A stretch of 64,000 nucleotides of DNA from Promethearchaeota archaeon (GTDB lineage Archaea > Asgardarchaeota > Heimdallarchaeia > Hodarchaeales > Hodarchaeaceae), in assembly GCA_048938105.1 (NCBI GenBank), contig JBHLMN010000023.1, forward strand, positions 1-64,000. The letters are read 5' to 3'. Numbering within the stretch: the first letter of the stretch is position 1; each line of letters begins with the position of its first letter. Below the pieces are notes generated by a model. It was given only the letters and a program-made list of their open reading frames with translations, was not told the origin of the DNA and made no database searches. The translations under genes and the position numbers were made by a program. This document shows, in pieces, positions 20,092-62,646 of the stretch.

Positions 20092-21780
20092 TTGAGAAAA
20101 ACAGTTGTAAGATCATCAAATATACTTCTCACCTTGGCTGGTATTGGCATATTGACGATAATTCTCGGTATTCTTTACTTTTCAGGTGCTGGAGGTATTG
20201 AAGGTGAACTTTTTTATGGATTTAATTATGGTGTACTATTAGCTTTTGGTTTCTACTTATCCTTAATAGGACTTTTTCCTGTCTTAACATCATTAGATGC
20301 AAGTGGAAAAAATACCATAAAAAAATTTTATCCTCATTTACTCCTTATAACTGGTATTGGAGTAATTTTCTTGATTTATTCATCTTTAGTTCCCCATACT
20401 CTTGCACCATTAACTCCTAGCCATACATGGTTTGATTATTATATTTTAGGTGCCGTGTTAATCATTTTTGGTTTCTCATCGATTCTGTTGGCCATTCGTG
20501 AACGTGAGAGGTTATGGAATTTTAAAATAATTCTATTCATCATATTTATAATTGGAATCCTCATTGAAATTGCCAGTTTATTAACTTATTTCGATCTTTT
20601 AGAGTCTTTTGACATCGAAAAGAGCATGTGGCTCACTTTTTACCTATTTGGAGGCGTAATATTATTCATTGGAATGATTCCCCTCTTAATAGGTGCCAGT
20701 TCGAGGTTTCGTTCAATTATCCATCGTTTAAGATTTATATGGATCTTAATAGCATTAATCGGAATAGTTACCTATGTTATTCCAACTTTAGCGATCAATG
20801 AAATTCTTCCTCTAACAGTATTTGAGTTTATGAATTACTTTGATTTCTTATTATTTGGCAGTCTTGCTATATTAATTAGTCTTTTATTAATTTCAGCTTC
20901 AGATGAAGCTTATGACTTTATTTACAGGCTTCGTTTTGTATTCCTGTTTCTCCTCCTTGTGGGAACTATCCAACTAATTATTTCTTTTGTACTTGTACTT
21001 CCCACCTCAGAGTACATTGATATTCCACAACTTGAACTTATTCCTCTAATGACAGTATCTGACTATCCAAATACTTTTGGAATGCTAATGTTGGTAGGAA
21101 TGACTTGGGACGTATATTATGTCAATGGAATAATAATGACTTTTATCTCTATCATATTCATATGCTCAATTGTATTTTTCGAATCTGAAGAAATTAGTGT
21201 TGATATTGGAGCACTTATGGCTGTTGAAGACGATAAATTACCTGGTATTGATACGACACCAAGTGAGATGTTAGCTTATTTAGAAATTGTGAATAGATCC
21301 CAAGTAGAAATGATTAAGTATTTCAAAGAAGCTTTTAGACAAGACAGATTCCGAGGACGAACATTTGAAGCAATAACTAAACAATATCAAGATCTAAATA
21401 AACTGATAAAGACAAAGATAAACTCCTACCGAGAGAAAGTCCCAAGTAGTGCTAAATTTTTGTTTGATGCAGCATTAAGTGAAGAACCGACAGCTGTTAT
21501 TTCTGAACCAACAATAACTCCTTCCATTCCAGAAGAAAGAAAGCCTCCAACTCCACCTCCAAGTGTCCCACCACCATCCCCTCCTATACCTACCACTGGT
21601 CCTCCTATCCCAACCCCATCCCCTATTGCGCCTCCTCCCGCTCCTGTTACCGCACCCGCTCCCCCAGCACAATCCTCTCTTGATTTAATAGCAGATGCCA
21701 GATCTACAAGTATAGCTGAATTACGTGGAGAGATGCTAAAGGAGTTGTCAAGACTGCGAGAGATATTCAAAGAAGATTAA
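20092..21780 (+). CDS. 10-TM membrane protein with cytoplasmic helical hairpin, polyproline linker and WH2-like C-terminal helix (paralogue 1)
   Basis: Five 2-TM repeats; PPTPPPSVPPPSPP tract; tail LDLIADARSTSIAELRGEMLKELSRLREIFKED. Confidence 0.8.
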   Translation: MRKTVVRSSNILLTLAGIGILTIILGILYFSGAGGIEGELFYGFNYGVLLAFGFYLSLIGLFPVLTSLDASGKNTIKKFYPHLLLITGIGVIFLIYSSLVPHTLAPLTPSHTWFDYYILGAVLIIFGFSSILLAIRERERLWNFKIILFIIFIIGILIEIASLLTYFDLLESFDIEKSMWLTFYLFGGVILFIGMIPLLIGASSRFRSIIHRLRFIWILIALIGIVTYVIPTLAINEILPLTVFEFMNYFDFLLFGSLAILISLLLISASDEAYDFIYRLRFVFLFLLLVGTIQLIISFVLVLPTSEYIDIPQLELIPLMTVSDYPNTFGMLMLVGMTWDVYYVNGIIMTFISIIFICSIVFFESEEISVDIGALMAVEDDKLPGIDTTPSEMLAYLEIVNRSQVEMIKYFKEAFRQDRFRGRTFEAITKQYQDLNKLIKTKINSYREKVPSSAKFLFDAALSEEPTAVISEPTITPSIPEERKPPTPPPSVPPPSPPIPTTGPPIPTPSPIAPPPAPVTAPAPPAQSSLDLIADARSTSIAELRGEMLKELSRLREIFKED

Positions 21781-22267
21781 ATTTTGGTAATTCAATATTA
21801 TTCAATGATAGAAAAATCCCCATATTTATATTCCGATTCATTGAGTTCAGGTTATGATTGAGAAGCTTTTTAATAAGAATCATCACGAAAACGGTTTATA
21901 AGAGAGAAAAACAGTTTTCTTACCTCCCATTTTTTTGGTTTATTATTTGATAAAAAAAATCAATGTTATCCCCTTCTGAAGCATGAAAAATGACTTTTTT
22001 CTTATCAATTGACCTAGTTTTCTTCTATGAGTATAAATTCGGAATAAAACAACGAAATTTGTTCCCATCTGTACAACATAACCACGATTTCGATGATCTT
22101 AGTATACTCGAAAATGACTCAAAATGTTCTTCTGGATTTTTAAAAAAGGAGTAATAGTCTCAGAAGAGTTAATTCGCCTCATTGTTGTAGAATTATAAAT
22201 CTCTATTAGTCCCCGATCGATTAGAAGAAGAATCTCTATATTTATCCCTGATTTATAAGAAGAGGAA

Positions 22268-22348
22268 TTTCACTAGACTTTATAAGTAAACTTTTGATAT
22301 AATGATAATAATTGGTTTTATAGTATTGATGATTAGGAGTTTATTTTG
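22268..22348 (+). promoter_or_regulatory. Conserved promoter/5' region of membrane-polyPro paralogue 2
   Basis: TTTCACTAGACTTTATAAGTAAACTTTTGATATAATGATAATAAT...AGGAG; TATA TTTATAA. Confidence 0.65.
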
Positions 22349-24040
22349 TTGAGAAAAATGGTAGTTAGATCATCAAAAGTGCTTCTTACTCTGGCTGGTA
22401 TTGGTATACTGATCATGGCCATTGCTCTATTATTTTTCACAGGAGTAGCATCATCAGTTGACATTACTACAGATCCTCCAACGTGGAATCGCTTAGTTTT
22501 TGGATTTGATTATCAGACTTTAACTGCATTTGGATTTTTCTTATTACTATTCCTTTCACCCGTTCTTGCCTCTTTAGATACCAATGCAAAAAAGAGTGTT
22601 AAAAAAATATATGTTTACTTGGTCTTACTAGTTGGTATGGGCATTATAATGCTGATTTATTCAGCTTTAGTCTATGGAGAATTTCTTAATCCATTTGATC
22701 CCCTTCATTCATGGTTTGATTATTATATTATTGGTGCATTGCTGATTATCATTGGTTTGGCAATCATCTTATTTTCTGTCCAGGATCGTGAACGATTGTG
22801 GAATTTCAAGCTTCTCTTTGCATTAATTATTTTAATTGGACTTCTACTGGAAATCTTAAGTTTAATTCTTTATAGTCAAGTTATAGTTATGCCAGAAATT
22901 GGATGGGACATTTCTTTCTTGTTGGGGGTTATAACACTATTCATCGGAGTGGTTCCTCTTTTATTGACTGCTAGTACACGCTTCCGTAATATTCTTCGCC
23001 GCTTGGGAATTATTTGGATATTAGGTGTATTAATTGGAATCGTAATAATCATTATTTCCAGTTTAGTTTATGCTGAGATTATTCCTCAATCACTTGTTCT
23101 CGATACTGATTGGTTTGTAATCTTAGCTTATGGCAGCCTTTTCACCTTATTATTTATTTTGTTACTAGCGAGTGTAGGATATGAGATTACCTATAAATTA
23201 CGATTTATATGGTTGATTACCTTTTTCCTTGGAGTAATATTTGTTATTATTTCTGTGGTTTTAGTCTTACCTGAATCACCTGAAATTGAGGGAGCTGTCG
23301 GAACACTCATTGGAAATGATTTCCTCGGAGCAACCTGGGATATATTTTACATGTATGGAACCATAATTATGATTTTTTCCCTCTCATTCATATCTTCGGT
23401 TTTGTATTTTGAAACAGAAGAGTATAGTGGCCCAGAAGGTTTATTAGAAAGTGTAGATAGACTACCTGATATTGAAACCACTCCAAGTGAGATGATAGCA
23501 TATCTGGAGATTCTAAGTAAATCCCAAGAAAACATAATTAATCAGTTCAAAGAAGCAGTTAGGGCAGATAAGTTTCGACCACGAGTTTATGAATCCATAG
23601 TTAAAATATACCAAGATCGTAATCGAATTATAAAATCGAGAATAGAAAAATTTCAGAAGGCGGGTCACCTAGTTTCAGCAGGAGAGGATGTAGAAGCACT
23701 CTTTGATGTAGCATTAGGAGAACCTTCTGAAGTTACTCCAATAACCAAACCAGCAGCTCCACCTACAGTATCTACAGCCGAAGTACCACCTGGACCCCCG
23801 CCTATCTCCGTTAAGGCTCCTCCAACTGGCCCGCCTGTTCCGCCTCCCTCAATCACTCTACCCACTCCACCCCCTAGTCCATTAGAAAGTGCTCCTCCTG
23901 CTCCTGGAGCTACAGTCACTCAACCCACAGAGTCTCCACTTGATTTAATAGCTGATGCAAGGTCAACAAGTATTGCAGAGTTGAGAGGGGAAATGCTAAA
24001 GGAGTTACGAAGACTGCGAGAGATCTTCAAAGAAGAATAG
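22346..24040 (+). CDS. 10-TM membrane protein with helical hairpin, polyproline linker and WH2-like C-terminal helix (paralogue 2)
   Basis: Same architecture as 20092-21780; last 33 aa are 31/33 identical. Confidence 0.8.
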   Translation: MLRKMVVRSSKVLLTLAGIGILIMAIALLFFTGVASSVDITTDPPTWNRLVFGFDYQTLTAFGFFLLLFLSPVLASLDTNAKKSVKKIYVYLVLLVGMGIIMLIYSALVYGEFLNPFDPLHSWFDYYIIGALLIIIGLAIILFSVQDRERLWNFKLLFALIILIGLLLEILSLILYSQVIVMPEIGWDISFLLGVITLFIGVVPLLLTASTRFRNILRRLGIIWILGVLIGIVIIIISSLVYAEIIPQSLVLDTDWFVILAYGSLFTLLFILLLASVGYEITYKLRFIWLITFFLGVIFVIISVVLVLPESPEIEGAVGTLIGNDFLGATWDIFYMYGTIIMIFSLSFISSVLYFETEEYSGPEGLLESVDRLPDIETTPSEMIAYLEILSKSQENIINQFKEAVRADKFRPRVYESIVKIYQDRNRIIKSRIEKFQKAGHLVSAGEDVEALFDVALGEPSEVTPITKPAAPPTVSTAEVPPGPPPISVKAPPTGPPVPPPSITLPTPPPSPLESAPPAPGATVTQPTESPLDLIADARSTSIAELRGEMLKELRRLREIFKEE

Positions 24041-24059
24041 GCCCTTTGAGGGATTTTTA

Positions 24060-24770
24060 ATATCAAAAAAAGGATTAAACAGATCTGAAGAGATCTCAAA
24101 ACAAGCGGCTGCAACTGAAGCTTTAAATTTTCTTTCCTCTGGCCAATATGTAGGGATAGGTAGTGGAACGACTATACATTGGTTAATATCACTCTTACCT
24201 GAAACTAAAATCTCCAATCTTTTTTTGGTACCTTCCTCTTTAGATACTCTAGTGAGATTACAAAATAATATCAAACAAAACTATAAAATTGTTGATCTAC
24301 CACCTCATGGTTTGGATATCACTATCGATGGAGCAGATAAAGTTAATCCAGAGAAGCAATCTGTAAAAGGGGGAGGAGGGGCATTAACACGCGAGAAAAT
24401 CATAAGGGAAGCTTCAAAGAAGTTTATTTTGATAGTTAGCTCTGAAAAAGTTGTTCCAAAGCTTCCTATGTTCCCAATTGCAGTTGAGATCCTTCCTTTC
24501 GGATGGAGACATACTATTAAACGTCTAGAATTGTTTGGAAAAAAAGCTATTCTACGGATAGCTAAGAACAAGCTTGGTCCAGTTATTTCCGATAATAACG
24601 GATATATAGTTGATCTTGATCTAGGTGATCGATTTCTTGAACCTAATGAAGTTCAAACATTAGAAGATAAACTGAATACTATTCCAGGAGTAATTGAGAA
24701 CGGGTTGTTCGGTCATGCTGCTGATGAAGTAATTGTTGGACACAATTCAGGAAATATCACAAGATATTAG
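24060..24770 (+). CDS. rpiA: Ribose-5-phosphate isomerase A (N-terminus extends upstream of the track start; probable ATA start)
   Basis: DGADKV, KGGGGALTREKI, PGVIENGLF; in-frame KQAAATEAL...VGIGSGTT begins at 24099. Confidence 0.93.
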   Translation: MSKKGLNRSEEISKQAAATEALNFLSSGQYVGIGSGTTIHWLISLLPETKISNLFLVPSSLDTLVRLQNNIKQNYKIVDLPPHGLDITIDGADKVNPEKQSVKGGGGALTREKIIREASKKFILIVSSEKVVPKLPMFPIAVEILPFGWRHTIKRLELFGKKAILRIAKNKLGPVISDNNGYIVDLDLGDRFLEPNEVQTLEDKLNTIPGVIENGLFGHAADEVIVGHNSGNITRY

Positions 24771-24784
24771 GAACATCTCATCTG

Positions 24785-26680
24785 TTATGAAATCTGTTTC
24801 CAGTATAATACCACAGAATTTTCTTCTAGTTTTTCTTTAAAGATACGACCAGCGTCACTGCGAGACGATAACTTAATCTTTCCTGATCTAGAGGTCGTTC
24901 CTACAAAAAATGGTTTTCTTTTTCCATTTAATTGGTCTTGAGTGAAGAATTGGATAGTAACGTTTCTCATGCGTTTTGGAAAGCTAATATACAAAGTATT
25001 TTTTCGAAAGGAAATCATTTTGTCCTTAATAATAGCAAGGTCAAAGGAAGCTGAATCTTTGCCTGATTTATTAACATCTAGCTTTACATGGAATGTTCTT
25101 TCTAACATTCGGATATTTTCTCCTCCTCTTCCTAGAATTGCTGGAACATCATTTTGATTACACTGAATCTCAAATCTTCTCCCATAACGGTCTTTGGGAA
25201 TAAGAACAACAGGATGAGTCGAAAACTCTTCGATAGCTTCCGTAATATCCTGAATAGTGCGACCATCAACCTTAACCAGGTTTAGATCTTCGTTTTCTAA
25301 AGGAATAACCACAGCTTGCTCGCCAAAAGTATAAATCTCATAAACTGGTTCTTTAGTCTCAAAATCCCGTACCTCAACAACAGGTCGAGCTAAATCACTT
25401 ACAACCAACCCTGCGGGAACTTTAACTGTCATCTTTACATCCAAAACGCGACTAATTCTACCTGCTTCAATATATATAATTGTATCAAGAACACTAGGGA
25501 TCATTCCCAATTCCAATCTTCCGATAAACCGTTGAATAGCGTCTATTGCTGTACTAGAGTGGATAACACCCACTAAACCGATCCCAGCTAGTCGAAGATC
25601 TGTGTATAGTTTAAAATCTTCTGTATCTCTTATTTCATCAAAAATAGTATAATCAGGACGGGAAAGAAGGAGTATATCATGAATTTCAGTGTGAGTGCCG
25701 AAATTCTTGGAATATTGGGTGATTTCAGCTTTCAGATCTAAGTCACGTGGTGATTCAATTGTCTTTACTACTTTGGATTTGCTTTCGTAAAAAAGAGCTA
25801 GAGCTCTCGTAAATGTTGTTTTTCCAGCCCCAGGACTCCCTGCAACAAGGACTCCTTCTGCTTTATCTTTCAAACGACTATACAGGTTGGATGAAAGATT
25901 ATAATCCTCAATTCTGAGTTTTTTCAGTGGACGAGCTGCTGTTATTTCCCACCCATCTGAAAATGGAGGTCTACAGATCACAATTCGAATGTTACCATAT
26001 TGAATAATAGTTGAACCTGGACGATCGATTTCAATGAAAGTGTCTTCAAATTTGAGTGCTTTTTCAATGATTTCTTCACTTAATTCTTTGAGAAAGTTTT
26101 TAGTACAAATCTTTTCAGAAAGTTGATCGAAACGAACATTACTAGGTGTGCCACGTTTTACAGAAATAGGGACTCCTTGCTTTAAATGGATACTCATGGT
26201 TTCTTTATCGAAATAATCCTCAATATGAAGCGTTTTTTCAAGAGTAGGTTTTTTTATTGGCACATAAATTACTTGAATTCCAACTGATTTCGCGACTAAA
26301 TGTTGAATATTATCTGATGTGACAAGAGTACCGTTTTCTTTCCAGGCATAATCTCGAATGATGGCGTCAATTTCACCACTCCGCGCCCTTTTAATCTCAG
26401 AGAGGTGTGGTCTTCGTCCCCCGTATTCTAAAAGAATACCTAAATCACCACACATTTGTTGAATTATCGTAAGTTCGTTCAATCCCTCGATACCACTTTT
26501 TCTTCCAGAATTTGCCTGATGTTCGAGTTCTGCAATTAATGATGCATGAATCGTTATTCTAGATTCAGTTTCGATCTCTCTAGTCTCGATTAGGCCTCTC
26601 AAACCGCCATTGATAATAGCTGATGTATCAGGAACATAAAGGGCCTCCTCAGATGCTAGTGAATATCTTCTCTCCTCCAT
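24785..26680 (-). CDS. PINA-type ATPase (PIN domain, VirB11/PilT-like ATPase, KH domain)
   Basis: YVPDTSAII PIN motif; GSPGAGKTT; DEIRD; ILGRGGENIR KH loop. Confidence 0.9.
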   Translation of the reverse strand: MEERRYSLASEEALYVPDTSAIINGGLRGLIETREIETESRITIHASLIAELEHQANSGRKSGIEGLNELTIIQQMCGDLGILLEYGGRRPHLSEIKRARSGEIDAIIRDYAWKENGTLVTSDNIQHLVAKSVGIQVIYVPIKKPTLEKTLHIEDYFDKETMSIHLKQGVPISVKRGTPSNVRFDQLSEKICTKNFLKELSEEIIEKALKFEDTFIEIDRPGSTIIQYGNIRIVICRPPFSDGWEITAARPLKKLRIEDYNLSSNLYSRLKDKAEGVLVAGSPGAGKTTFTRALALFYESKSKVVKTIESPRDLDLKAEITQYSKNFGTHTEIHDILLLSRPDYTIFDEIRDTEDFKLYTDLRLAGIGLVGVIHSSTAIDAIQRFIGRLELGMIPSVLDTIIYIEAGRISRVLDVKMTVKVPAGLVVSDLARPVVEVRDFETKEPVYEIYTFGEQAVVIPLENEDLNLVKVDGRTIQDITEAIEEFSTHPVVLIPKDRYGRRFEIQCNQNDVPAILGRGGENIRMLERTFHVKLDVNKSGKDSASFDLAIIKDKMISFRKNTLYISFPKRMRNVTIQFFTQDQLNGKRKPFFVGTTSRSGKIKLSSRSDAGRIFKEKLEENSVVLYWKQIS

Positions 26681-26684
26681 CTTT

Positions 26685-27341
26685 TTAAACCTCAATTTGC
26701 TCATTAGACGGTGTCAATTCATCTCTATATTCATATTCTAACTCATTAGGTTCAAGCTCTAATTGTGATGCTTGGTAATAAGTAACATCCCCAAGACGGT
26801 CAACCACAGAGAGGAGTAGAATTTTTCGGTCAATTTTTGTTTGATTCACAATTTGATCTAAGAAATCAAGGTCAAGATGTTCACCCTCGGATAGGGGAAA
26901 AATAACCTTTTTGCTTACTGATTCTCCTGGTTTTCCACCTCGAGAATAAATTCTAAAAGGTGCTGTGATTTGGGTCCCTATACGCACTACATAACCCCGA
27001 TTTCGAAGATCCTTATACACAAGATAACGACTCCAGAAGTCATTATTTTTTTCTGTGAAATGAGCTACAATCTCTGAGGAGGTGATTTTCTTGTTTGTAG
27101 TGGTATTGAGAACTTCTATTCTTTTACGATCCATAAGAAGCAAAATTTCTTCTGGTTCTAAGACAAGAGAATTCTCTGAAGTCCATTGACCAAAATAGCC
27201 ATTATTAAAGATTTCATGCGCAACATGATCATGGACTGTTAGAGTCGAACATTCCATATCAAAATACAATATTGGAACAATAATTTCCTCATTAGCAGAA
27301 TCTAGGTCAGGGGCCATGATGGGTAAGTACCAACCAGACAA
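26685..27341 (-). CDS. tRNA-splicing endonuclease, structural (non-catalytic) subunit
   Basis: YLVYKDLRNRGYVVR and VVDRLGDVTYY present; catalytic His missing. Confidence 0.8.
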   Translation of the reverse strand: MSGWYLPIMAPDLDSANEEIIVPILYFDMECSTLTVHDHVAHEIFNNGYFGQWTSENSLVLEPEEILLLMDRKRIEVLNTTTNKKITSSEIVAHFTEKNNDFWSRYLVYKDLRNRGYVVRIGTQITAPFRIYSRGGKPGESVSKKVIFPLSEGEHLDLDFLDQIVNQTKIDRKILLLSVVDRLGDVTYYQASQLELEPNELEYEYRDELTPSNEQIEV

Positions 27342-27788
27342 GTGAATAGTCTTATAATTATATTTTCTAGCTCTTTCTTTACTATTTAAGCGTACGGAAG
27401 CTTCGTGTTTAGCCTTAATTTCCTTTCCCTTTTAAGTTAAATACTGTCAGATACTCGATAACTGCTAGAATTTGAGATTATAAATGGGTAATTACCAAAA
27501 TGAAAAAGAACCTATAGGTGTAAGGTCTGAGAATATTACCAAGATATTAATTCTTCAAAAGATAGTGAGAAATTCAAGAAATCCTGGAGAGAAAATCCCT
27601 CAATAGAGTCTTTTTTAACGGGCCTCCAATCACACAAGTCAGATTTTTGGGAGGTTGAAAGAAACAGTACGGAGGGTTTAAATCAGTTGTTGAAAACTGA
27701 CGACAACGACGTGTACCAAGCTTTAGAAACAAGTTTGATTGCTAGAGTACATCTATTCTGAAATAATTAAAGATTGGAGACCGTAAGC

Positions 27789-28796
27789 ATGGGTCATAGG
27801 AAAAAACACGCGCCACACCGAGGATCTCTTGGCTATCGACGAAAAAGAGCAAGAAGACATACAGCCCGATTGAGAACGTGGCCAGAGTCAAGTGATGCAA
27901 TTGAACCTAGATTGTTAGGACATGCGGGGTATAAGGCTGGAATGACGCATTTAGCAATGGTAAATACTGATAGAAAATCTCCTTTTTTCAAACAAGAACA
28001 ATTTGTACCAGTCACCATAATTGAAACTCCACCAATAGTCATTTTTGGTATACGAATTTATATAACTGACCAGTTCACTAAAAAACCTCGTGTTATGACC
28101 CAAATTTGGGGAGATAGCATTGAAAAGGATCTAAGTCTTCGGATTAAGATTCCGAAAGAACAACAAAATAAAGAACAAAGAATCAGTGAGGTACAGAATA
28201 TCATCGCAAATGTTAAGGAAATTCGTGTATTAGCTCATACTTCACCTAGAGAAGCTGGTTTTCCTCAAAAAACTCCTGATATTTTGGAAATTAAGGTAGG
28301 GGGTTCAGTTGATGAAGCATTCAATTATGCTTTGCAGATCTTAGATCAAAAAATCTCTATAGATGATGTCTATAAACCTAGTGATTTTATAGATGTGATC
28401 GCTACTACAAAAGGGAAAGGATTCGCTGGGCCTGTTAAACGACACGGAATTAAAATTCTTCCTCGTAAAACTCGTAAGGGTCGAAGAGTTGTTGGATGTA
28501 TTGGACCTTGGCATCCTGCTCGAGTAATGTGGACTGTTCCCCGTGCTGGGCAGCTAGGCTATTTTGCACGAACAGAATATAACAAACAAATTCTCAAGAT
28601 AGGCGAAGATGGAGAGGAAGTAACTCCTGTGAGCGGTTTTAAACGATATGGAAAAGTTGGGAAACATTGTATTCTTCGCGGGAGCGTTCCTGGCTCATCT
28701 AAACGTCTAGTTCGCTTAAGAGATCCAATAAGACCAAAACCTACGGAAATTGAAGAGCTTCAGATTACTTATATCAGTACTACAGCTAAGAATTGA
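27789..28796 (+). CDS. rpl3: 50S ribosomal protein L3 (uL3)
   Basis: GYKAGMTH, TKGKGFAGPVKR, GPWHPARV. Confidence 0.97.
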   Translation: MGHRKKHAPHRGSLGYRRKRARRHTARLRTWPESSDAIEPRLLGHAGYKAGMTHLAMVNTDRKSPFFKQEQFVPVTIIETPPIVIFGIRIYITDQFTKKPRVMTQIWGDSIEKDLSLRIKIPKEQQNKEQRISEVQNIIANVKEIRVLAHTSPREAGFPQKTPDILEIKVGGSVDEAFNYALQILDQKISIDDVYKPSDFIDVIATTKGKGFAGPVKRHGIKILPRKTRKGRRVVGCIGPWHPARVMWTVPRAGQLGYFARTEYNKQILKIGEDGEEVTPVSGFKRYGKVGKHCILRGSVPGSSKRLVRLRDPIRPKPTEIEELQITYISTTAKN

Positions 28797-28803
28797 AAAT
28801 AAT

Positions 28804-29937: not shown

Positions 29938-29950
29938 ATAGGTGAAAAAA

Positions 29951-44567: not shown

Positions 44568-45159
44568 TTATCCCTCCTAGGATTCCTAATGGGTGAAATA
44601 GCCATAATACTAAAACTAAGGAAAAAATTAAGGCAAAAATTGCCTGACTCCATCTGAGAACCTTTGCACCATCCAGTACAGAGAATGGTAACATATTAAA
44701 CAAAGCTAGATCAAGAGAGGCCTTACTTGCATATAAAAGAACGTCTATAGCCCAATCTAGCGGCATAAAAGATGAAAAAAGTAAAAAAAGACCTCCAATG
44801 AGAATGTTTGTCAGGGGTCCTGCTATTGAAATACGACCTGATGTATCTAACCGATATTCACCAGAAGAAAAAACAACTCCTGGGGCAATGATCTTTATTG
44901 GTATTATCGGTATTATCGAAAGTAAAGAAATTAGAGCCATATTTGGGTCAAGCCGAAAGAACGAGGTTAATCCATTACCTTGAGCTACGAATTTGTGTGC
45001 TAATTCATGAAAAAACCAAAGAGGGATGATGAGTATGCCTAGAATTAATAGTTCTAAAGGTGTTTTGAAATAATATATTGCAATAGATAATTCGACTAGA
45101 ACAAATATCGTTGTTCCAATTAATAAATCTCGTTTTTCGGTTGATGTGAATGAATACAT
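44557..45159 (-). CDS. Site-2 protease (M50 family) intramembrane metalloprotease
   Basis: HELAH, AGPLTN, FNMLPFSVLDG. Confidence 0.9.
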   Translation of the reverse strand: MYSFTSTEKRDLLIGTTIFVLVELSIAIYYFKTPLELLILGILIIPLWFFHELAHKFVAQGNGLTSFFRLDPNMALISLLSIIPIIPIKIIAPGVVFSSGEYRLDTSGRISIAGPLTNILIGGLFLLFSSFMPLDWAIDVLLYASKASLDLALFNMLPFSVLDGAKVLRWSQAIFALIFSLVLVLWLFHPLGILGGIIVV

Positions 45160-45180
45160 TCTAATTAGCTACCTCTCTCC

Positions 45181-45375
45181 TCACTTCTCACTAATTTGGT
45201 TGACTAATTTTTCCCAAGTACCGATTTCCTGTTTCAGGAGTTCTTCAATAGCGATTCTTAGAAAATGAGACCGAGACTCATACTGTTCGAGTCGCACAAA
45301 ATTATCGATTAATATCAATATTTGGTCTGGAATTTTGATACTTATGGGTTTCTGACGTGTCATTGATGTTTTCAC
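45181..45375 (-). CDS. Ribbon-helix-helix (CopG/NikR-like) regulator
   Basis: ISIKIPD...ID.FV...YESRSHFLRIAI. Confidence 0.8.
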   Translation of the reverse strand: MKTSMTRQKPISIKIPDQILILIDNFVRLEQYESRSHFLRIAIEELLKQEIGTWEKLVNQISEK

Positions 45376-53655: not shown

Positions 53656-53660
53656 GATGG

Positions 53661-54522: not shown

Positions 54523-54532
54523 AAAGAAACCT

Positions 54533-54727
54533 CTAGCGTACTTTGATAGCATATTTCCCAGGTCGAGTAACATTGAGTTTGTGAGCTATTTTGCTTTTAT
54601 TGACATCTCTTATAATAACCATACCAACAAAGGATTTAGAAAGATGATTATGAGTTTTACAAATGGGACAGACCTCCTCTCCATGTACTATGCTATTACA
54701 TTTCTTACATGCTTTTAATTTTACCAT
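54533..54727 (-). CDS. spt4: Transcription elongation factor Spt4 (RpoE'')
   Basis: ACKKC..CPIC, SKIA..L...PGKYAIKVR. Confidence 0.93.
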   Translation of the reverse strand: MVKLKACKKCNSIVHGEEVCPICKTHNHLSKSFVGMVIIRDVNKSKIAHKLNVTRPGKYAIKVR

Positions 54728-55279
54728 TTAAGAATTCTCCTTTGTTGTAGATTCTTCAATCCAGCTTTTCAAGCCAAGACCTTCCCCCTTCATTGTGACT
54801 GCGATTTTCATGCTTACATGATCAACAGTTGCCGTAATGATCTTTCCACGGACAAGATCCCCTGGCCTAATTGTACGACCTGATTCTCGTCCTACTAAAA
54901 CACCAGAAGATCGAGAAGACATCTGGAAATACTCTTCCGCAATCTGACTGATATGAGCTAATGCGTCAGTACAGCCTATTCTCATGAAAAAACCAAATTT
55001 TGTAGTTTCTACTACCTCTCCTTCGGATACTTCATCATCTAGTGGTCGAAAGGTGATAGCTTCATATTCAACATCATGAAACGTTGCTCCATCGCCTGGA
55101 ACAATCCTACCTGGCGAAACTTCGATGATAGACAATATTGCAACAATCATTCCAACATCTGCACCAATTGTAGTTTCATTTTTTGCCCGAGAGATATCAA
55201 GTATGACCTTTGCTATTGACTCCCCAAAACGGTTTGGAGGAACACGGATTGTTTCACGGATTCGAGTTAAGTAGTACAT
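54728..55279 (-). CDS. rpo7: RNA polymerase subunit Rpo7 (RpoE')
   Basis: IRVPPNRFG, PGDGA, S1 domain, GLG. Confidence 0.93.
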   Translation of the reverse strand: MYYLTRIRETIRVPPNRFGESIAKVILDISRAKNETTIGADVGMIVAILSIIEVSPGRIVPGDGATFHDVEYEAITFRPLDDEVSEGEVVETTKFGFFMRIGCTDALAHISQIAEEYFQMSSRSSGVLVGRESGRTIRPGDLVRGKIITATVDHVSMKIAVTMKGEGLGLKSWIEESTTKENS

Positions 55280-55607
55280 AGTTCTTAAGCCTCAGTACGT
55301 TACCCTAGTACTGCAACTACTAAAAAATAGATCACATTGGGGTTTATTCATTAGACTATTGAGTGTTTCCACAAAACAATTCTTACAGAGATTGTATAAG
55401 AAAATCTCTTAACTTTAAGATAAGAAAAAACTAGCCAAAAAAGGGATTTATTTCCATTTGGAAGAATGATATTTTCTTGAACGAAAATAATTGAGCTAAA
55501 TGAATAGTTGATATTCACAATATGACACTTATTTGTCCATACGAATAAAAAAAGGGGTGTGGGGATCAGACCCACTTTTAAGATATTGATTTAGGATATT
55601 TTCGAGA

Positions 55608-58094
55608 TTATTCTCTAATTGATGTTATTTTTCGATTACTTTTCCTATATGCCCATATAAACAATACAAAAAGTCCGGCCGCAACTATCATTAGAATTAA
55701 ACTAAGATCTGGTTTGACAGTTGATTCTACTAAAAGTGGAGCCAATATAAGACTTACTAAGTTAACAACTTTTATCATAGGATTAATTGCTGGACCTGCT
55801 GTATCTTTCAAGGGATCACCAACTGTATCACCAACAACACCCGCTTTATGACGTTCGGAACCTTTCCCCATATTCTTTTCTATGTCCCGAGGCTCGTCCT
55901 CTACAGCCTTCTTAGCATTGTCCCAAGCACCGCCAGCATTCGCCATGAATACTGCTAGTAATTGTCCAGAAGCAATTATTCCTGCTTGGAAACCCCCTAG
56001 TACTTCAACCCCAGAACCAATTGTTTGTCGCGCGGCCTCAGAAATGTTGGAAATGGTTGCTCCTTGGACTATTAGTACACTGAATAAAATCGCTACCATA
56101 ATAGGAACTGAAACAGCAATAACGGCTAAACTTACTAATTCTTTCTGTGCTGCTGATGTGGAGATTGATACGGCTCGTCCGTAATCAGGTTTTTTTGTTC
56201 CTTCCATAACACCAGGAATTTTAAATTGGTGCCTAACTTCCTCAATAATGTCACCTGCAGCTCGACTGACTGCTCTGATGTTGAAAGCAGCAAAAATCCA
56301 TGGTAAAGCTGCACCAAGCAAAAGACCAACAAAAACCGCAGGAATATTAACACGCAAACCGTTTAAAAGCGGATTTACTAAATCTGGATACCCAGCGTCC
56401 ACCAAATTATCTACAACAACTTGTATATCGGTAACAAAGGATGCAAACAAGCTAACCGCGGCAATAACAGCGGAAGCAATAGCTATACCCTTTGTAATCG
56501 CCTTTGTGGTGTTACCAACGGCATCTAGTTCTTCTAAAACGCCTGCTGATTCCTTATCCATAGATGTAAGTTCAGCAATACCTTGCGCATTATCACTAAT
56601 TGGCCCAAATGAATCCATTGCTACATTATTACCTGTGTGAGAAAGCATACCAATTCCAATTAGTGATATCCCATAAAGCATGTATTGTAAAATCTGTGAG
56701 GAATCAACATATAATTCTCGAATTCCAAGAAATCCACCAAAGATCTGATTACCTGGAAGAATAAGAAATGTACAAACAGCTATTACAAATGAGATGCAGA
56801 TTGTAACAACAGCCCAAACACTAGATTCATACCCAAGAGCAAGTCCAGAGAGAATAGTTGTTGCAGGGCCCCCATCCATTGACTCAACTACCTCTTTAAC
56901 AGGGCCTCGTTCTTTCGAGGTAAATCTAGCTGTAATAGGATTAAAAGATACAGCTAACATCACACCTGTAGCTGTAAGAAATGCTAGTCTCCAATCACCT
57001 ATGTAAAAAATGGCAAAAATAAACGAGGTTACAATGGTAATTGCACTAGAAAGTTCATATGATTGGAACATTGCTTTCTCTGCATCAGGTGTCTTCCAGA
57101 GGGCAACTGCAAAAGTACCAACCATTGAACTGATTACACCAATTCCTCTTACAATAAGGGGATACATTATCCAAACAATAGCCTCTGTGATCGGAGTGCC
57201 TGGTACATCTAGTGCTAATCCATATAAAAATAAACCGAGAATGAGTGATGAAACGATAGTAACTTCATAAGACTCAAAGATGTCTGCAGCCATCCCTGCA
57301 CAGTCTCCAACATTATCTCCTACGAGATCCGCGATAACAGCCGCATTGCGTGGATCATCTTCAGGGATATCCTTCTCAACTTTACCAACGAGGTCTGCTC
57401 CGACATCGGCAGCTTTTGTATAAATACCACCACCTACTCTCATGAAAAGGGCAAGAATTGTACCACCAAATCCAAAACCAAGAAGTGCATCCGGGGCAGC
57501 CGTTCCAAGAACTATAAAAATGAGCGTACCTCCTAAAAGACCAAATCCATCAGTCAACATCCCTGTGACAGTACCAGCATGATATGCTATCGAAAGTGCT
57601 TTGTTATATCGTCTGTCAACATCCATAACCTGTCCATTCTCGTCCGTTGCTCCTTGAGCAGCAGCAGCAACCCTTAAGTTACCTTGAACTGCAATTCGCA
57701 TCCCAAATTGACCAACCATTAAAGAAAAGCTTGCCCCCATAATGAAAGCAATTGTCCTCCCAATCGCTAGTATCAATGTTCTTGTCTGTTTGGGGAATGC
57801 TTCCAGTTCATATTGCGCCGCTTCAGATGTATGGATTAAATAAACACTCAGAAAAAGGGCGCCTGTCAGTAGGATTACAATCGGTAGAATTGTTTTTAAT
57901 TGTTTCCCAAGATAGGCATCAGCACCTTCCTTAATGGCACTCCAAACCTGTTTCATGTCATCGGTTCCAGTGTCGTGCTTCATAACATCTTGTTTTAACC
58001 ACCAAGAATATATGAAGCTCAAAATGGCTACAATGATGACACCAATGAGAACTAATTGTTCAAAAGGATCTAAACGCATAAATGTAGTGAACAT
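55608..58094 (-). CDS. hppA: Membrane-bound pyrophosphatase, probably a K+-independent H+ pump
   Basis: GGGIYTKAADVGADLVGKVE, DNVGDCAG, GNTTKA (Lys at the K+-dependence site), GDTVGDPLKDT. Confidence 0.95.
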   Translation of the reverse strand: MFTTFMRLDPFEQLVLIGVIIVAILSFIYSWWLKQDVMKHDTGTDDMKQVWSAIKEGADAYLGKQLKTILPIVILLTGALFLSVYLIHTSEAAQYELEAFPKQTRTLILAIGRTIAFIMGASFSLMVGQFGMRIAVQGNLRVAAAAQGATDENGQVMDVDRRYNKALSIAYHAGTVTGMLTDGFGLLGGTLIFIVLGTAAPDALLGFGFGGTILALFMRVGGGIYTKAADVGADLVGKVEKDIPEDDPRNAAVIADLVGDNVGDCAGMAADIFESYEVTIVSSLILGLFLYGLALDVPGTPITEAIVWIMYPLIVRGIGVISSMVGTFAVALWKTPDAEKAMFQSYELSSAITIVTSFIFAIFYIGDWRLAFLTATGVMLAVSFNPITARFTSKERGPVKEVVESMDGGPATTILSGLALGYESSVWAVVTICISFVIAVCTFLILPGNQIFGGFLGIRELYVDSSQILQYMLYGISLIGIGMLSHTGNNVAMDSFGPISDNAQGIAELTSMDKESAGVLEELDAVGNTTKAITKGIAIASAVIAAVSLFASFVTDIQVVVDNLVDAGYPDLVNPLLNGLRVNIPAVFVGLLLGAALPWIFAAFNIRAVSRAAGDIIEEVRHQFKIPGVMEGTKKPDYGRAVSISTSAAQKELVSLAVIAVSVPIMVAILFSVLIVQGATISNISEAARQTIGSGVEVLGGFQAGIIASGQLLAVFMANAGGAWDNAKKAVEDEPRDIEKNMGKGSERHKAGVVGDTVGDPLKDTAGPAINPMIKVVNLVSLILAPLLVESTVKPDLSLILMIVAAGLFVLFIWAYRKSNRKITSIRE

Positions 58095-58527
58095 GGTTTC
58101 ACTTTTCCTTTCTACAAATTTATCAGAACCTTGAATTCAATGATAGGTAAACTATATATCTTTTTCAAAGAATAAAAGGATCCTCATGAGCTATTCTTTT
58201 GATTTTTATACATAAAGTTGTTTATAGTTTGTAACAGACCTGAAAAACAAGTGGTTCTGCCTAAACAACTTAACAAGAAACCAATTTTAAAAATTTTAAA
58301 TAATTTTTTCCTTTTTTTGGATTCAAAATTCTTAGGTTGCCTTTTTTGGAAGTAATTTTAACATATTTATATTGTAATTGTTGATAGAAGAAGGATGATC
58401 TTTAATGACAAGGACATTATTTCAAATAGAAGAGTCTTAGTAACTTTCTTATGAGGGAGAAATTATTTTTGATTTAGCGACTAGAACGAGTAAAGTAATT
58501 CCAAATCAGGAATTCTGGGTGTATAAA

Positions 58528-58977
58528 ATGACTGAAAAGACGCTTTTGGTGATTAAACCCGATGCTGTCCAAAGATCGTTGATTGGACAAATTATTTCCC
58601 GGATCGAGGAGAAAGGTCTTAAAATAATCGGCCTGCAAATACAAAAATTAACAGAATCACAAGTAGATCAATTATATGACATTCATGTAGGAAAAACCTT
58701 TTATCCTTTATTACAGTCATTTATTCTCTCTGGCCCTATTGTTGCAATTGGGATTCAAGGTGAAAATGCTGTCAAAGTCGTACGAAAACTGGCTGGTATA
58801 ACAAACTCCCCTGAAGCCGAACCTGGGACAATTCGTGGAGATTATGGACTTGATTTAACAAAAAATATTGTTCATGCTTCTGATGCTATTGAACGGGCAC
58901 AATATGAGTTAAGTATTTTATTCAAAAAAGATCAATTGGTAGAATATGAACTGATAAATAAAAATTGGATAAAATAA
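58528..58977 (+). CDS. ndk: Nucleoside diphosphate kinase
   Basis: IKPDAV, PGTIRGD, NIVHASD. Confidence 0.96.
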   Translation: MTEKTLLVIKPDAVQRSLIGQIISRIEEKGLKIIGLQIQKLTESQVDQLYDIHVGKTFYPLLQSFILSGPIVAIGIQGENAVKVVRKLAGITNSPEAEPGTIRGDYGLDLTKNIVHASDAIERAQYELSILFKKDQLVEYELINKNWIK

Positions 58978-59054
58978 TTAAATGATGTCCTTGAAGGTTT
59001 GAATATAATGGCACCTAAAATATCAAAACGAATTTTAAAAGGGAGGAATCTTTA

Positions 59055-59711
59055 ATTCAGCGACGTTATCCCTATAAGAGAATGCGAATAGAAAATTTAA
59101 ACCGTTCACAGCTCATTAAAGATGAAGAAGATCGTTGGAGATTAGTTACACCAAGTGGGGATTACATTTTCCGAATATGGATCATGGGAATTGTCACAGA
59201 AAGATATACTGGGGAAAATTACTATCTTGGGTTGAAAGTGGAGGATGGGAGTGGAGCAATTATAGTAAAAACTTGGGACGGCAGACTTGATCAATTTCAG
59301 AAGTGGGATAAAATCGAGGTTTTAGGCCAAGTGCAAATGTCTGAGAGAGATGAAGAAATTGATGTTTTTATCTCTCCTGATATTTTTCAATCTATTTCAG
59401 ATGATAACTGGTTCTTAGTACATAGGTTAAAAATTGCTCAACAACTCCAAAGTGACACCTCGATTGAAGTTAAGTCTGCAACTGTAGGAGGTATTGAACT
59501 TGGTGTTGCCTCTATAGAAGATCTGAAAATAAAATTACACGAGGCTGTTAAGAAGTTTGATAAGGGGGGAGGTGTAACATATAACCAACTAGTAAGGATA
59601 TTTTCCGATATTGATGAGGTTCAGCTTGATGAAGCTATTACCGAGTTACTGGAATCTGGAGAGTTTTTTGAACCTAAAGCAGGGATTTTTTCCTCAGCTG
59701 TTGATTCATGA
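59055..59711 (+). CDS. RPA32/RPA2-like single-stranded DNA-binding protein (OB fold plus C-terminal winged helix); start uncertain
   Basis: RIWIMGIV...VEDGSGAI OB fold; LLESGEFFEPKAG wHTH; in-frame RRYPYKR upstream of ATG 59082. Confidence 0.8.
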   Translation: MQRRYPYKRMRIENLNRSQLIKDEEDRWRLVTPSGDYIFRIWIMGIVTERYTGENYYLGLKVEDGSGAIIVKTWDGRLDQFQKWDKIEVLGQVQMSERDEEIDVFISPDIFQSISDDNWFLVHRLKIAQQLQSDTSIEVKSATVGGIELGVASIEDLKIKLHEAVKKFDKGGGVTYNQLVRIFSDIDEVQLDEAITELLESGEFFEPKAGIFSSAVDS

Positions 59712-59741
59712 AGTTATTTAATATGATTCTAGAAGAAAGTC

Positions 59742-60308
59742 TTAAGGACGATTCCACTGAAAAACATAGTATCGAATCTGTTGGTCTGATAAAACAGTTG
59801 CAATAACATATCTTTTTCTTACTGATGTTGCAAGTCTTCCAGCACGGACTAGATCAATAGGTTTGATCGTTGACGCCTTTGGAAAGATTGAAACTAGAAA
59901 TGGAGCGTGATCAATTCCTGGGCCACGACGATAAACAGCATAATCAGTCCCAAATTTAAGACCAGGACGTACAATGTAACGCTTATTACGGAGGTCCAAA
60001 AAAACCGCATAAAAATCATCAAATTTTGGAAATCGTTCCTTACAAATGTTTAAGAATTCATCTTGGGAAAGAAATTTTGAATCGTCACTATAAATAGAGA
60101 TTTTCTTCTTCTCCTGTAGAAATGCAGCCTCTAAAAGGGTTAGTTCTAGAGGACGATCAAATCTGGGTGATTTAGGTTTTCTAATCCCTACTGGTTTTCC
60201 AAAATACCCTAGTTGGTAAATATAGCTTCCCTGATTTGGGTTCCATATGATCACATGCTTATTAACTATTTGAGCTGGAATTGGGATTTCCATTGATTTT
60301 GCTTCCAA
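59742..60308 (-). CDS. endA: tRNA-splicing endonuclease, catalytic subunit
   Basis: GLKFGTDYAVY, GPGIDHA and SVRK give the Tyr/His/Lys triad. Confidence 0.92.
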   Translation of the reverse strand: MEAKSMEIPIPAQIVNKHVIIWNPNQGSYIYQLGYFGKPVGIRKPKSPRFDRPLELTLLEAAFLQEKKKISIYSDDSKFLSQDEFLNICKERFPKFDDFYAVFLDLRNKRYIVRPGLKFGTDYAVYRRGPGIDHAPFLVSIFPKASTIKPIDLVRAGRLATSVRKRYVIATVLSDQQIRYYVFQWNRP

Positions 60309-60333
60309 AAGGAAAGTAAAATTTCAGATCAAC

Positions 60334-60960
60334 TTATCTCTCGTTGCCCCTTCGATTTAACATTGGGGCAATCAATCTAATAACTAAGAGTATGTCAAGA
60401 ATTACAAGGGTAATAAGTAGAGTAATAGCAGCATAAAAATTAGCCAAAGAAAAATCTTCTGGAGTTTCAATGACTGTAATCTCAACATTATTGCTGATTG
60501 TCTTAAATTTCGTAGGATTGAGTTCTGAGTCATAATACTCAACGAGTGCCGAGAATAAGTAATATGTACCTAGCGATTTTGCTGTAACTAAATAACTAAA
60601 TTTACGAGTTTCATTAACATCAATTTGACCATAAGAGAGTTGTGTTAAACCTGATACCTCAAAAACCCACGGTTGATTTAATTGATCAATAAAAGTAACA
60701 TTGTAAGCTGTTTTGTTACCAAAGTTATTAATGATCACATTGACTACAAAACTCTCCCCTCTAACTACCTCAGTTTTATCAACGTTTTTTACAACAAATA
60801 ATTTCGGGTAAATAAAATTTGTTTTCTCCACTTCTGCTGTTGAAGCCCTGACATGTGTTGTTGTTTGATTTAGGGCAATACCAACAATATTCAGACTTAC
60901 TACTGTTAAGAAAACAAAGCAAATCCGTTTTGTCTTACTATTCAATAATAAAAACCCCAT
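60334..60960 (-). CDS. TRAP-beta (SSR2)-like type I membrane protein (BatD/DUF11-like Ig fold)
   Basis: Signal segment; L.V.K...V.G...I.N.G...A.NV...D...F.VSG...G.Y...A.V.Y; C-terminal TM. Confidence 0.6.
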   Translation of the reverse strand: MGFLLLNSKTKRICFVFLTVVSLNIVGIALNQTTTHVRASTAEVEKTNFIYPKLFVVKNVDKTEVVRGESFVVNVIINNFGNKTAYNVTFIDQLNQPWVFEVSGLTQLSYGQIDVNETRKFSYLVTAKSLGTYYLFSALVEYYDSELNPTKFKTISNNVEITVIETPEDFSLANFYAAITLLITLVILDILLVIRLIAPMLNRRGNER

Positions 60961-61076
60961 TAAGGCGCAGTTACACTCCTGTAGATTATCTTGTTAAAGA
61001 TTCTTGTTTCTATTCTTTTTATCTTCAAATTTTCTTAACAAAACATTCTTGTTTTACTTTTTTCCTTTAACTTAAC

Positions 61077-62030
61077 ATGGCACATTCTTTATTTGAAAAG
61101 AGATTTCTGTTCTTTGGAGGAAAAGGAGGAGTTGGTAAGACCACCATGGCAGCTGCTACAGCTATAAGAGCGGCTGACCGTGAATATCGTACTTTATTAG
61201 TTTCAACAGATCCAGCTCATTCTGTCTCAGATAGTCTAGACCAACGAATTGGAGGGGAGACTTACACAAAAGTGAATAATGTCTCAAATTTATGGGCTAT
61301 CGAGCTGAATACAGAAGAGGCTATGCGGAATTACAGTCAAATTGTAAGTCAACAGGATCCTTCAGGAACTGTTTCAGAATTTCTTGGTGGGGATGATCCT
61401 GCTTCTTTATCCCCACCAGGAGCGGATGAAACAGTAGCATTTATACAGCTGTTAGAATATATTCAAAATCCTGAATATGATATAGTTGTATTTGATACAG
61501 CTCCAACTGGGCATACACTTAAACTGCTTCAACTACCAGAGATGACCCAAAGTTGGTTATATCGACTCATTAAAATGAGACGACGGCTAGGAGGGATGAT
61601 GGCTGGTTTTAAAGCCATTTTTGGGGGAAATTCTGGTACAAGCGAACAAGAAGCCTTTGATAAGCTAGAGGAATTAAGAGACCAAGTAGAAATTGCACGA
61701 GTTCATTTAGCCAATGCAAAAGAAACAGAATTTGTTGCTGTTATGATTCCTACTATAATGGCGATTTGGGAAACAGAACGTCTGATTCGAGCATTGTTTG
61801 AAGTGGCTTTTCCAATATCACAAATCTTTATCAATCAAATCCAGCCTAAAAATCTAGAATGTGCCTATTGTAGAGCAAGATATGGGAGTCAACAGGAGAA
61901 TTTACAAAAAATTCAGGAATTATACTCTGAATTTGACCTAATTGAAATTCCAATGTTTGAATATGAAATTAGAGGTATTGAGCGCCTTCGAGAATTAGGT
62001 CTCTTATTGTACCAAGAAGATTCTAATTGA
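61077..62030 (+). CDS. ArsA/Get3 (TRC40)-family ATPase
   Basis: GKGGVGKTT, STDPAH, DTAPTGHTL, C-terminal CAYC. Confidence 0.92.
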   Translation: MAHSLFEKRFLFFGGKGGVGKTTMAAATAIRAADREYRTLLVSTDPAHSVSDSLDQRIGGETYTKVNNVSNLWAIELNTEEAMRNYSQIVSQQDPSGTVSEFLGGDDPASLSPPGADETVAFIQLLEYIQNPEYDIVVFDTAPTGHTLKLLQLPEMTQSWLYRLIKMRRRLGGMMAGFKAIFGGNSGTSEQEAFDKLEELRDQVEIARVHLANAKETEFVAVMIPTIMAIWETERLIRALFEVAFPISQIFINQIQPKNLECAYCRARYGSQQENLQKIQELYSEFDLIEIPMFEYEIRGIERLRELGLLLYQEDSN

Positions 62031-62046
62031 AGAGAGATATTAGATA

Positions 62047-62646
62047 TTATCCGTCTTCGTCCCAACCTTTCTTAATTCTAGCAAAAGCCTCTTTAAGTTC
62101 CATGTTCATTTGAGCTTTTAAACTCATTGGAGAAGCTCTTGCTGGGGGAGCAGCTGGTTGTGGTGCCGGTGGTTGTCCGAAACTTGGTTGTGGAGCTGGA
62201 GATAAACCAGGTAGAGGGGGAAGACCTGGTGGTGCCGATGGAGAAGAGGGAGGAGAAGTCGGACTTGAGGGGGGAGCCGAAGCCGTTGCTGGAGTTGGGG
62301 GTGTTGGAAGTCCTGGTGGTACACTTGTTGTTGCTGGTGCTGGAGGTGGTACACTTGTTGTTGCTGGTGTTGGAGGTGGTACACTTGTTGTTGCTGGTGT
62401 TGGAGGTGGTACACTTGCTACTGGTGTTGAAAGTGGTCTAGAAGCAGCTGTTACACCTGGGTTTGTTGAAAGTTGATCTACTTTGATAGTTAATTCATCT
62501 AAGCTATTTGCTAAGCTATCTACAATCTCTGCGAGCTGAGACACAAAACCAAAGAACTTTTTTGTCACTTCAATTAATGTTTTTACATTCTGGGACTCAT
62601 CATCACCAAAGAAATCATCTATGTTTTTCATAGACACCAAGAACAC
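62047..62646 (-). CDS. Small coiled-coil/polyproline protein with a C-terminal helix and acidic Trp tail
   Basis: Heptad N-terminus, ~100-aa Pro-rich tract, tail SLKAQMNMELKEAFARIKKGWDEDG. Confidence 0.8.
   Translation of the reverse strand: MFLVSMKNIDDFFGDDESQNVKTLIEVTKKFFGFVSQLAEIVDSLANSLDELTIKVDQLSTNPGVTAASRPLSTPVASVPPPTPATTSVPPPTPATTSVPPPAPATTSVPPGLPTPPTPATASAPPSSPTSPPSSPSAPPGLPPLPGLSPAPQPSFGQPPAPQPAAPPARASPMSLKAQMNMELKEAFARIKKGWDEDG
62311..62417. repeat. 30-bp coding tandem repeat, about 3.5 copies (TSVPPPTPAT)
   Basis: TGGAGGTGGTACACTTGTTGTTGCTGGTGT units at 62311, 62341, 62371 and 62401 (partial). Confidence 0.9.

Follow-up and report, generated by a model that had tools for sequence, protein, structure and literature searches.

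Two tandem membrane proteins, memA and memB, encoded in a 64,000-nucleotide stretch of an Asgard archaeal genome, end in a near-invariant helical peptide that is a portable pan-Asgard module, joined to several unrelated scaffolds at or near the C-terminus. The stretch, hereafter the window, comprises positions 1-64000 of contig C38 (JBHLMN010000023.1) in the 5.85-Mb genome (35% GC) of a Promethearchaeota archaeon, and close homologues of its proteins come from Hodarchaeales/Heimdall-group metagenome-assembled genomes. A soluble protein encoded 40 kb away, sol199, also ends in a helix preceded by a Pro-rich tract. Sequence comparison suggests, with a probability of about 0.5, that the module is a tethered docking helix and that the sol199 tail is a diverged copy of it.

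The memA gene (20092..21780, + strand) is a 562-aa open reading frame (ORF) whose product has 10 predicted transmembrane (TM) helices followed by a helical region in the cytosol, an arm rich in Pro and a helix at the end. Its tandem paralogue memB (22346..24040, + strand; 564 aa, 10 TM segments, 117 homologues) has the same layout, and the two proteins are 45% identical over their full length. In both, the C-terminal ~205 residues are made up of a helical stretch, a Pro-rich tract of ~75 residues and, directly after it, a tail of 33 residues. The distribution of Lys and Arg over the N-terminus and alternate loops of the 10 hydrophobic segments places this part in the cytoplasm. As delimited by composition, the arms occupy 21457..21678 in memA (37% Pro) and 23711..23938 in memB (35% Pro), both on the + strand; their sequence differs between the paralogues and is not conserved.

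The terminal helices lie at 21679..21777 and 23939..24037 (+ strand). Comparison of the last 33 codons of the two genes reveals 18 identical codons, 13 synonymous differences and two non-synonymous ones, leaving 31 of the 33 residues the same. With so many silent changes beside so few replacements, recent gene conversion is ruled out and selection must act on the peptide itself. The tail is essentially invariant among the 117 database homologues, some of which are ~25-30% identical elsewhere in the cytosolic part, and homologues in Hodarchaeales, Kariarchaeaceae and Heimdall LC_3 records carry the memB tail unchanged. The likeness between the memA and memB tails is far beyond chance.

The same peptide is found on proteins other than this pair. 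Tails are grouped here by carrier into type M (memA and memB), S1 (sol199), S2 (two soluble carriers) and S3 (coil-type soluble carriers). A profile built from the M and S2 tails, A4, scores the memA and memB tails at 66 bits each (E 1e-17 per genome for memA), and a search of the proteome detects both at E 1e-15, at the C-terminus. In the whole genome A4 matches four proteins, two membrane and two soluble, at E 1e-15 to 1e-20, and the next match lies at E 0.03. The two soluble proteins are the S2 carriers (218 and 260 aa, on contigs C39 and C61), which have 96 homologues that keep an invariant tail version of their own. A survey of 399 Asgard genomes yields A4 matches in 129, and a search of 1.84 billion (1.84e9) representative database proteins yields 55 matching clusters, nearly always at the C-terminus. 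A total of 116 distinct tails, gathered by anchoring on a core pattern described below, align without gaps; they serve as the pan-Asgard tail profile and hidden Markov model (HMM). The consensus is [RK]-[ST]-T-[SG]-I-[AS]-x-L-R-x-[EQ]-M-L-x-E-L-[KR]-[KR]-[LI]-[KR]-x-[IV]-[FM].

The carriers examined include the 10-TM proteins, proteins of ~300 aa with a single TM segment, the S2 soluble family and the S3 coil-type family, in which an N-terminal helix is followed by regular Pro repeats (8-10 tandem GPP or APPA units) and the tail. The juxtamembrane helices of memA and memB had been suspected by eye of homology with the N-domain of the S2 proteins; profile comparison gives a probability of 0.3%, and the suspicion is unsupported. 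Since the cytosolic domains of the membrane and S2 proteins are not detectably related, only the tail is common to them. An earlier note on this DNA, made from the sequence alone, had proposed that one module is attached to both soluble and membrane scaffolds and that its spread be surveyed across Asgard proteomes. The survey bears this out, with the tail found on several unrelated scaffolds; the proposal stands by virtue of the two S2 proteins and the carriers of other Asgard archaea, and not by virtue of sol199, on which the note had based it.

Pfam holds no family matching memA, memB or sol199, PDB sequence searches with both tail profiles return nothing relevant, and no description of the peptide was found in Pfam, among solved structures or in the literature. 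Matches in the ESM Atlas are confined to Asgard clusters without names. A 64-aa ORF in the window (~45074-45265), picked up by the tail HMM at E 0.03-0.3, was discarded as a spurious AT-rich frame. The OAR motif (PF03826) was also set aside for the tails: it reaches 11-15 bits against a cut-off of 20.1, covers only the STSIAxLR part, and is accompanied by no homeodomain.

Two of the carriers examined, and only these, have the motif away from the C-terminus. The database protein P0249 (344 aa) bears three tandem copies at its N-terminus and has neither a Pro arm nor a TM segment, and P0277 (672 aa) has an internal copy. Elsewhere in the genome, outside the window, three tandem membrane proteins with bPH_2 domains (PF03703; contig C64:18808-20855, locus L110) end in a helix without a Pro arm. 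Compared with the pan-Asgard tail profile, these helices score 22.7-23.2, at a probability of 85-87% and above all of 380 random C-terminal 32-mers used as a control.

The gene for sol199 lies on the - strand (62047..62631) and encodes a protein of 194 aa from the likely ATG at 62631, or of 199 aa from a GTG at 62646. AlphaFold2, run with 35 homologues, predicts a long N-terminal helix (residues 12-56, 62464..62598) with a predicted local distance difference test score (pLDDT) of ~90 and nearly invariant columns. There follows a disordered Pro-rich arm (residues 57-170, 62137..62463; 37% Pro) with a pLDDT of 50-59 and no secondary structure, which contains a G-L-P-P-L-P-G element (62206-62226) whose LPPLPG columns are invariant or nearly so in the 35 sequences. 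The tail is modelled as a separate terminal helix (residues 171-191, 62050..62136; pLDDT 79-86; 18 invariant columns), with a low predicted template modelling score (pTM) of 0.23 for the whole chain. All of these elements are on the - strand. The Pro-rich tract directly before the tail counts 115 residues, 37% of them Pro, and the succession of helix, Pro arm and terminal helix parallels that of the module carriers. The earlier note had located all three tails correctly, those of memA and memB at the positions given above and that of sol199 in the frame 62047-62646 (- strand), each at the C-terminus after a Pro-rich tract.

The 35 homologues of sol199 are all labelled Hodarchaeales/Heimdall. 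Among the 399 Asgard genomes, a profile of the S1 N-domain finds the protein in 20 of 20 genomes of the family labelled f1 and in one of the two genomes of its sister family f2; elsewhere in the set there is no credible match, only three marginal ones at E 0.002-0.008. In the surveyed genomes the sol199 family is confined to the order of the window.

Whether the sol199 tail derives from the module turns on a short core. The pattern L[RK]x[EQ]MxxEL[RK] occurs four times in 1.87 million residues of ORFs of at least 100 aa, against 0.027 occurrences expected. The four proteins are memB, sol199 and the two S2 proteins, with the core 8-14 residues from the C-terminus in each; memA differs by a Ser at the last position. 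Without gaps, the sol199 and membrane tails keep S(-4), L0, M4, E7, L8 and hydrophobic residues at 11/12 and 15, counted from the first Leu of the core. The earlier note had described a longer motif common to the three tails, beginning with AR and followed by a one-residue shift. Its 10-residue core and hydrophobic spacing are indeed shared; the AR is not, the sol199 family reading PR, PG, PS, AH or PT at that site, and the ungapped alignment makes the shift unnecessary.

Profile-profile comparison with hhalign gave a probability of 10% (P 0.003) when the two tail alignments were first compared. Once the S1 profile had been made order-wide by adding f2 tails, its probability against the pan-Asgard profile was 80% (P 1.4e-5), in register and ungapped over 17 columns, and none of 150 column shuffles reached the real score of 21.5. 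The f2 tails belong to two sol199 homologues of the sister family, for which the S1 N-domain profile gives E 5e-9 and a protein search E 2e-21. The tails are intermediate in sequence, with the cores S-L-R-S-Q-M-M-S-E-L and S-L-Q-A-Q-L-R-S-E-L, and in a proteome-sized search with the pan-Asgard HMM one of the two homologues comes fifth at E 0.045, just behind the four true carriers. A parallel, weak match (probability 20%, P 0.0011) joins the N-terminal helix of S1 to that of the coil-type carriers, which are not picked up directly by the S1 N-domain HMM. Also in favour of a link, the tail profile returns no coil-type carrier from f1 or f2, where the lengths listed for f1 fit only S2 proteins of ~250 aa and 10-TM proteins of ~565 aa, no search with a coil N-domain profile having been made there.

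A different explanation is that the two helices are unrelated, the sol199 tail being an independent, order-specific amphipathic helix with its own partner and the likeness a product of chance or convergence among K/E/L-rich helices. Such an origin would agree with the failure of the HMMs to cross-detect the two tails, with the 10% probability of the first hhalign comparison, with Smith-Waterman ranks of the cross-family tails (134-2104 of 5883) that are unremarkable and inside the background, with the differing flanks and the variable site of the supposed AR, and with the score of the single sol199 tail against the 116-tail profile (14.7), which 2 of the 380 random tails exceed and which is counted in favour of the link as well. 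An unrelated origin sits poorly with a core that is unique in the proteome and lies, behind a Pro arm, equally far from the C-terminus, with the intermediates of the sister family, with the order-wide comparison and its shuffles, and with the parallel match between the N-helices. On balance, an unrelated origin appears rather unlikely but is a serious rival.

Descent from the module is the preferred account, and the following points weigh against it or against the docking role suggested for the module. The HMM of M and S2 tails ranks sol199 1527th and the 116-tail HMM ranks it 3039th, neither detecting it, while the S1 HMM ranks memB 347th and detects no other carrier; the earlier note had staked the link on cross-detection of the two protein types, and by that measure the link fails. 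The module's N-flank, [RK]-[ST]-T-[SG]-I-[AS], and C-flank, [KR]-[LI]-[KR]-x-[IV]-[FM], are not kept in sol199, which reads S-P-M-S before the core and E-A-F-A-R-I-K-K-G-W after it, so that the S1 tail departs from the module on both sides of the core. The core pattern was chosen after the sequences had been seen, the statistics of hhalign are poorly calibrated on helices of 17-36 columns, and the best column shuffle reached 18.4 against the real 21.5. Finally, gene neighbourhoods point to no partner.

From these comparisons the sol199 tail is probably a diverged module copy, with its origin in the order to which the window belongs, and sol199 as a whole is likely to be a diverged relative of the coil-type carriers that is found only there. 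On this view the tail has retained the front half of the helix, along with the hydrophobic residues at 0, 4, 8, 11/12 and 15, and has acquired a new C-terminal half ending in K-G-W and acidic residues. The link between three proteins over 40 kb is plausible and unproven, sol199 being joined to the other two by the 10-residue core, the profile-profile comparison and the sister-family intermediates.

Both memA and memB carry, on the cytoplasmic side and at the tip of a disordered Pro-rich arm, a near-invariant helix of ~25 residues. As a tethered docking helix it could bring one conserved cytosolic partner to any scaffold carrying it. Near-invariance of the tail fits binding to a conserved partner, and the invariance of both hydrophobic and polar positions, the terminal location and the flexible arm suggest a helix for docking or assembly. 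A second short element recurs beside the helical parts. An acidic/aromatic motif, F-D-x-x-L-[GS]-E, adjoins the helical parts of memA (21457-21483) and memB (23687-23713), its F, D and L being invariant or nearly so in the family; related motifs are L-F-D-F-L-E-G-D in carriers of the coil type and, in sol199, an N-terminal [LI]-D-[DE]-F-F-G-D-D-E (62596-62625). This motif may be another docking site.

One candidate partner, doubtful at present, is an MIT domain: the genome encodes three Vps4-like MIT-AAA ATPases, on contigs C11, C40 and C46, and the MIT domain in one of them would read the tail in the manner of a MIM1 motif. The MIM1 consensus is (D/E)xxLxxRLxxL(K/R) at the C-terminus. In this numbering the module fits at L3 (as Met), L7, L10 and K/R11, and deviates in having Glu at position 6 and Arg at position 0. 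The Glu6 deviation is shared by ESCRT-III tails of the same genome, which encodes three Snf7 proteins, located elsewhere than the carriers. Its two Vps2/24/46-type ESCRT-III proteins end in E-L-x-x-E-L-x-K-[LI]-K. The pattern [LM]xxELx[KR][LI][KR] has 19 matches in the proteome, seven of them within 15 residues of the C-terminus: these two ESCRT-III proteins, four carriers and one other protein. Against the tail profile both ESCRT-III tails reach 17-18, a value exceeded by no more than one of the 380 random tails, and the Vps20/32/60-type tail gives no such high score. An alignment of ESCRT-III tails from 29 genomes, the window's own included, matches the tail profile at P 0.0011 over 12 in-register columns, with none of 120 shuffles reaching the score. 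This likeness appears to be the resemblance of a short K/E/L-rich core, and not proof.

Recognition by MIT has several features of the module to contend with. Nothing in ESCRT-III tails corresponds to the strongly conserved STSIA N-flank, Glu takes the place of the canonical MIM1 Arg, identity of the MIT domain across the class is just 31-41% as against an unvarying tail inside each scaffold family, and sol199 is without the L-K end of the MIM1-like core (L10, K11). A complex predicted between the canonical Vps4 MIT domain and the M/S2 tail scores 0.27 against a mark of 0.32; it was run without controls and is not used either way. The third MIT-AAA ATPase of the genome is divergent and lies outside the window (C46:45007-50789), followed by a very acidic 221-aa ORF and a 1263-aa ORF. 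As a broader scheme, which is unlikely as a whole, Asgard archaea could use a MIM1-like tag outside ESCRT-III: tailed multi-pass and single-pass membrane proteins, bPH_2 membrane proteins and several soluble coil proteins, the sol199 family among them, would recruit Vps4-type MIT-AAA ATPases while their Pro repeats bind profilin, coupling membrane remodelling and actin dynamics before eukaryotes.

Among the named candidates MIT is the most probable, ahead of the actin or profilin machinery and, after that, of self- or hetero-assembly of the tails; some other partner is slightly more probable than any of them. In the case of actin the regular PPxP repeats would serve as profilin sites and recruit profilin-actin, and the terminal helix would bind the hydrophobic cleft of Asgard actin as WH2 motifs or arcadin-2 do, making the carriers membrane-anchored and soluble polymerization factors. 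The Pro repeats are regular and FH1/VASP-like, as in the LPPLPG of sol199 and the GPP or APPA units of coil-type carriers; the extreme conservation of the tail matches a highly conserved target such as actin; and a Heimdall-group profilin binds polyproline weakly (PMC8410842). Set against this, the WH2 family PF02205 remains unmatched even at E 10, with six tails or with whole proteins, LKK[TV] follows the helix in none of the tails, nothing like the tail profile occurs among PDB chains, and the loci examined show no conserved linkage to actin or profilin genes. Taken alone, the role as an actin adaptor is unlikely.

Still less probable is a role in assembly, by which the tails would bundle into homo- or hetero-oligomers, as in VASP-like tetramerization, or fold back on their own helical domain and so cross-link carriers. 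A heptad-like stripe at -3, 0, 4, 8, 11 and 15, accompanied by i/i+4 charge pairs, the conservation of every helix face, the invariant tail version particular to each scaffold family and the three tandem copies in P0249 would all be accounted for in this way. AlphaFold2 keeps the sol199 tail separate and predicts no packing, though the data returned include no contacts either way. Finally, an amphipathic, basic, C-terminal helix after a flexible linker could target proteins to membranes, like the C-terminal helices of MinD or FtsA, and soluble carriers do exist. As 10-TM and 1-TM carriers need no targeting, and invariant acidic and polar positions (E3, E7 and the S/T N-flank) are unexpected for lipid binding, this function is very improbable. 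A docking helix remains the favoured interpretation of the module.

The six loci of S2 and coil-type carriers inspected are surrounded by housekeeping genes, with no recurrent partner. In the window, sol199 lies in a block (60334-63886) with a pterin-binding enzyme, an ArsA/Get3 ATPase (61077-62030) and a TRAP-beta-like protein (60334-60960), next to the tRNA-splicing endonuclease EndA (59742-60308). The order Pterin_bind-sol199-Get3-TRAPbeta-EndA is kept in Hodarchaeales genomes whose sol199 homologues are just 46-50% identical. The conserved sol199-Get3 block is a matter of general synteny, and the two genes are convergent. Proximity to Get3 had raised the idea that the sol199 tail is a Get5/Mdy2 C-terminal dimerization domain (PF18514). 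The match is noise: it reaches E 0.11 and 12.7 bits against a cut-off of 25, sol199 comes third genome-wide at E 2.3, and 12 of 14 control genomes give matches at that level. A search of the same genome for GET4 found none.

Further observations concern other genes. The window encodes two tRNA intron endonuclease paralogues (26685-27341 and 59742-60308, both on the - strand), and in another Asgard family a coil-type tail carrier lies ~1.2 kb from an EndA gene (locus L097). The rpiA frame (24000-24770, + strand) is open from 24000 and has its first ATG, GTG or TTG codon, a TTG, at 24225. Initiation there would cost ~55 residues, including the conserved N-terminal G-I-G-S-G-T-T motif. A GAGGG stands 8 nucleotides upstream of an ATA at 24060, and this non-canonical ATA is likely to be the rpiA start. 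Between rpiA and a tRNA endonuclease paralogue, a 639-aa protein (24785-26704, - strand) combines PIN, T2SSE-type ATPase and KH domains.

In eukaryotes, short docking helices on disordered arms provide the wiring of cytoskeletal and ESCRT networks. The peptide described here, ~25 residues long, varies less than its carrier proteins across much of the Asgard phylum, and it has moved between unrelated membrane and soluble scaffolds. This suggests a hub protein with which many Asgard proteins need to make contact. Should this hub be Vps4, actin or profilin, the module would bear directly on a coupling of membrane and cytoskeleton that predates eukaryotes. The 40-kb link itself is worth less, since it adds to the module set one likely diverged family found only in the window's order.

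Among known systems, the MIM1 tails of Vps2/24/46-class ESCRT-III proteins, which are read by the Vps4 MIT domain, likewise have a helix at their very end, preceded by a flexible linker containing Pro. The module core E-[ML]-x-K-E-[LI]-[KR]-[KR]-L-K resembles the Asgard ESCRT-III sequence E-L-E-K-E-[IL]-x-[KR]-L-K over 10-12 residues. In contrast to these tails, the module has an additional invariant N-flank, R-S-T-S-I-A, and additional hydrophobic residues at the C-terminus, and PF03357, the Snf7/ESCRT-III core, is not found on its carriers. The adaptors that combine polyproline with WH2/GAB helices (PF02205) in WASP/WAVE/WIP and Ena/VASP share the arrangement of a scaffold, multivalent Pro repeats and a short terminal helix; the module helix is longer and coiled-coil-like. 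In Ena/VASP, the C-terminal tetramerization helix is also a terminal amphipathic helix after Pro-rich and linker regions, an analogy of layout.

Arcadin-2 of Pyrobaculum reportedly binds crenactin, an actin homologue, through a short C-terminal helix. It offers a candidate analogy from archaea for a terminal helix docking on an actin homologue, although it comes from another lineage and shows no sequence similarity, the tail profile matching no such PDB chain at E up to 10. Judged by sequence features, the module appears to share the positional features of MIM1, to lack the ESCRT-III core, to fit the consensus only in its Asgard variant, and to lack both WH2 features. By analogy, it may best be described as a kind of tethered docking helix, whose nearest known counterparts would be MIM1 tails, polyproline-WH2 adaptors and actin-docking helices of the arcadin-2 type.

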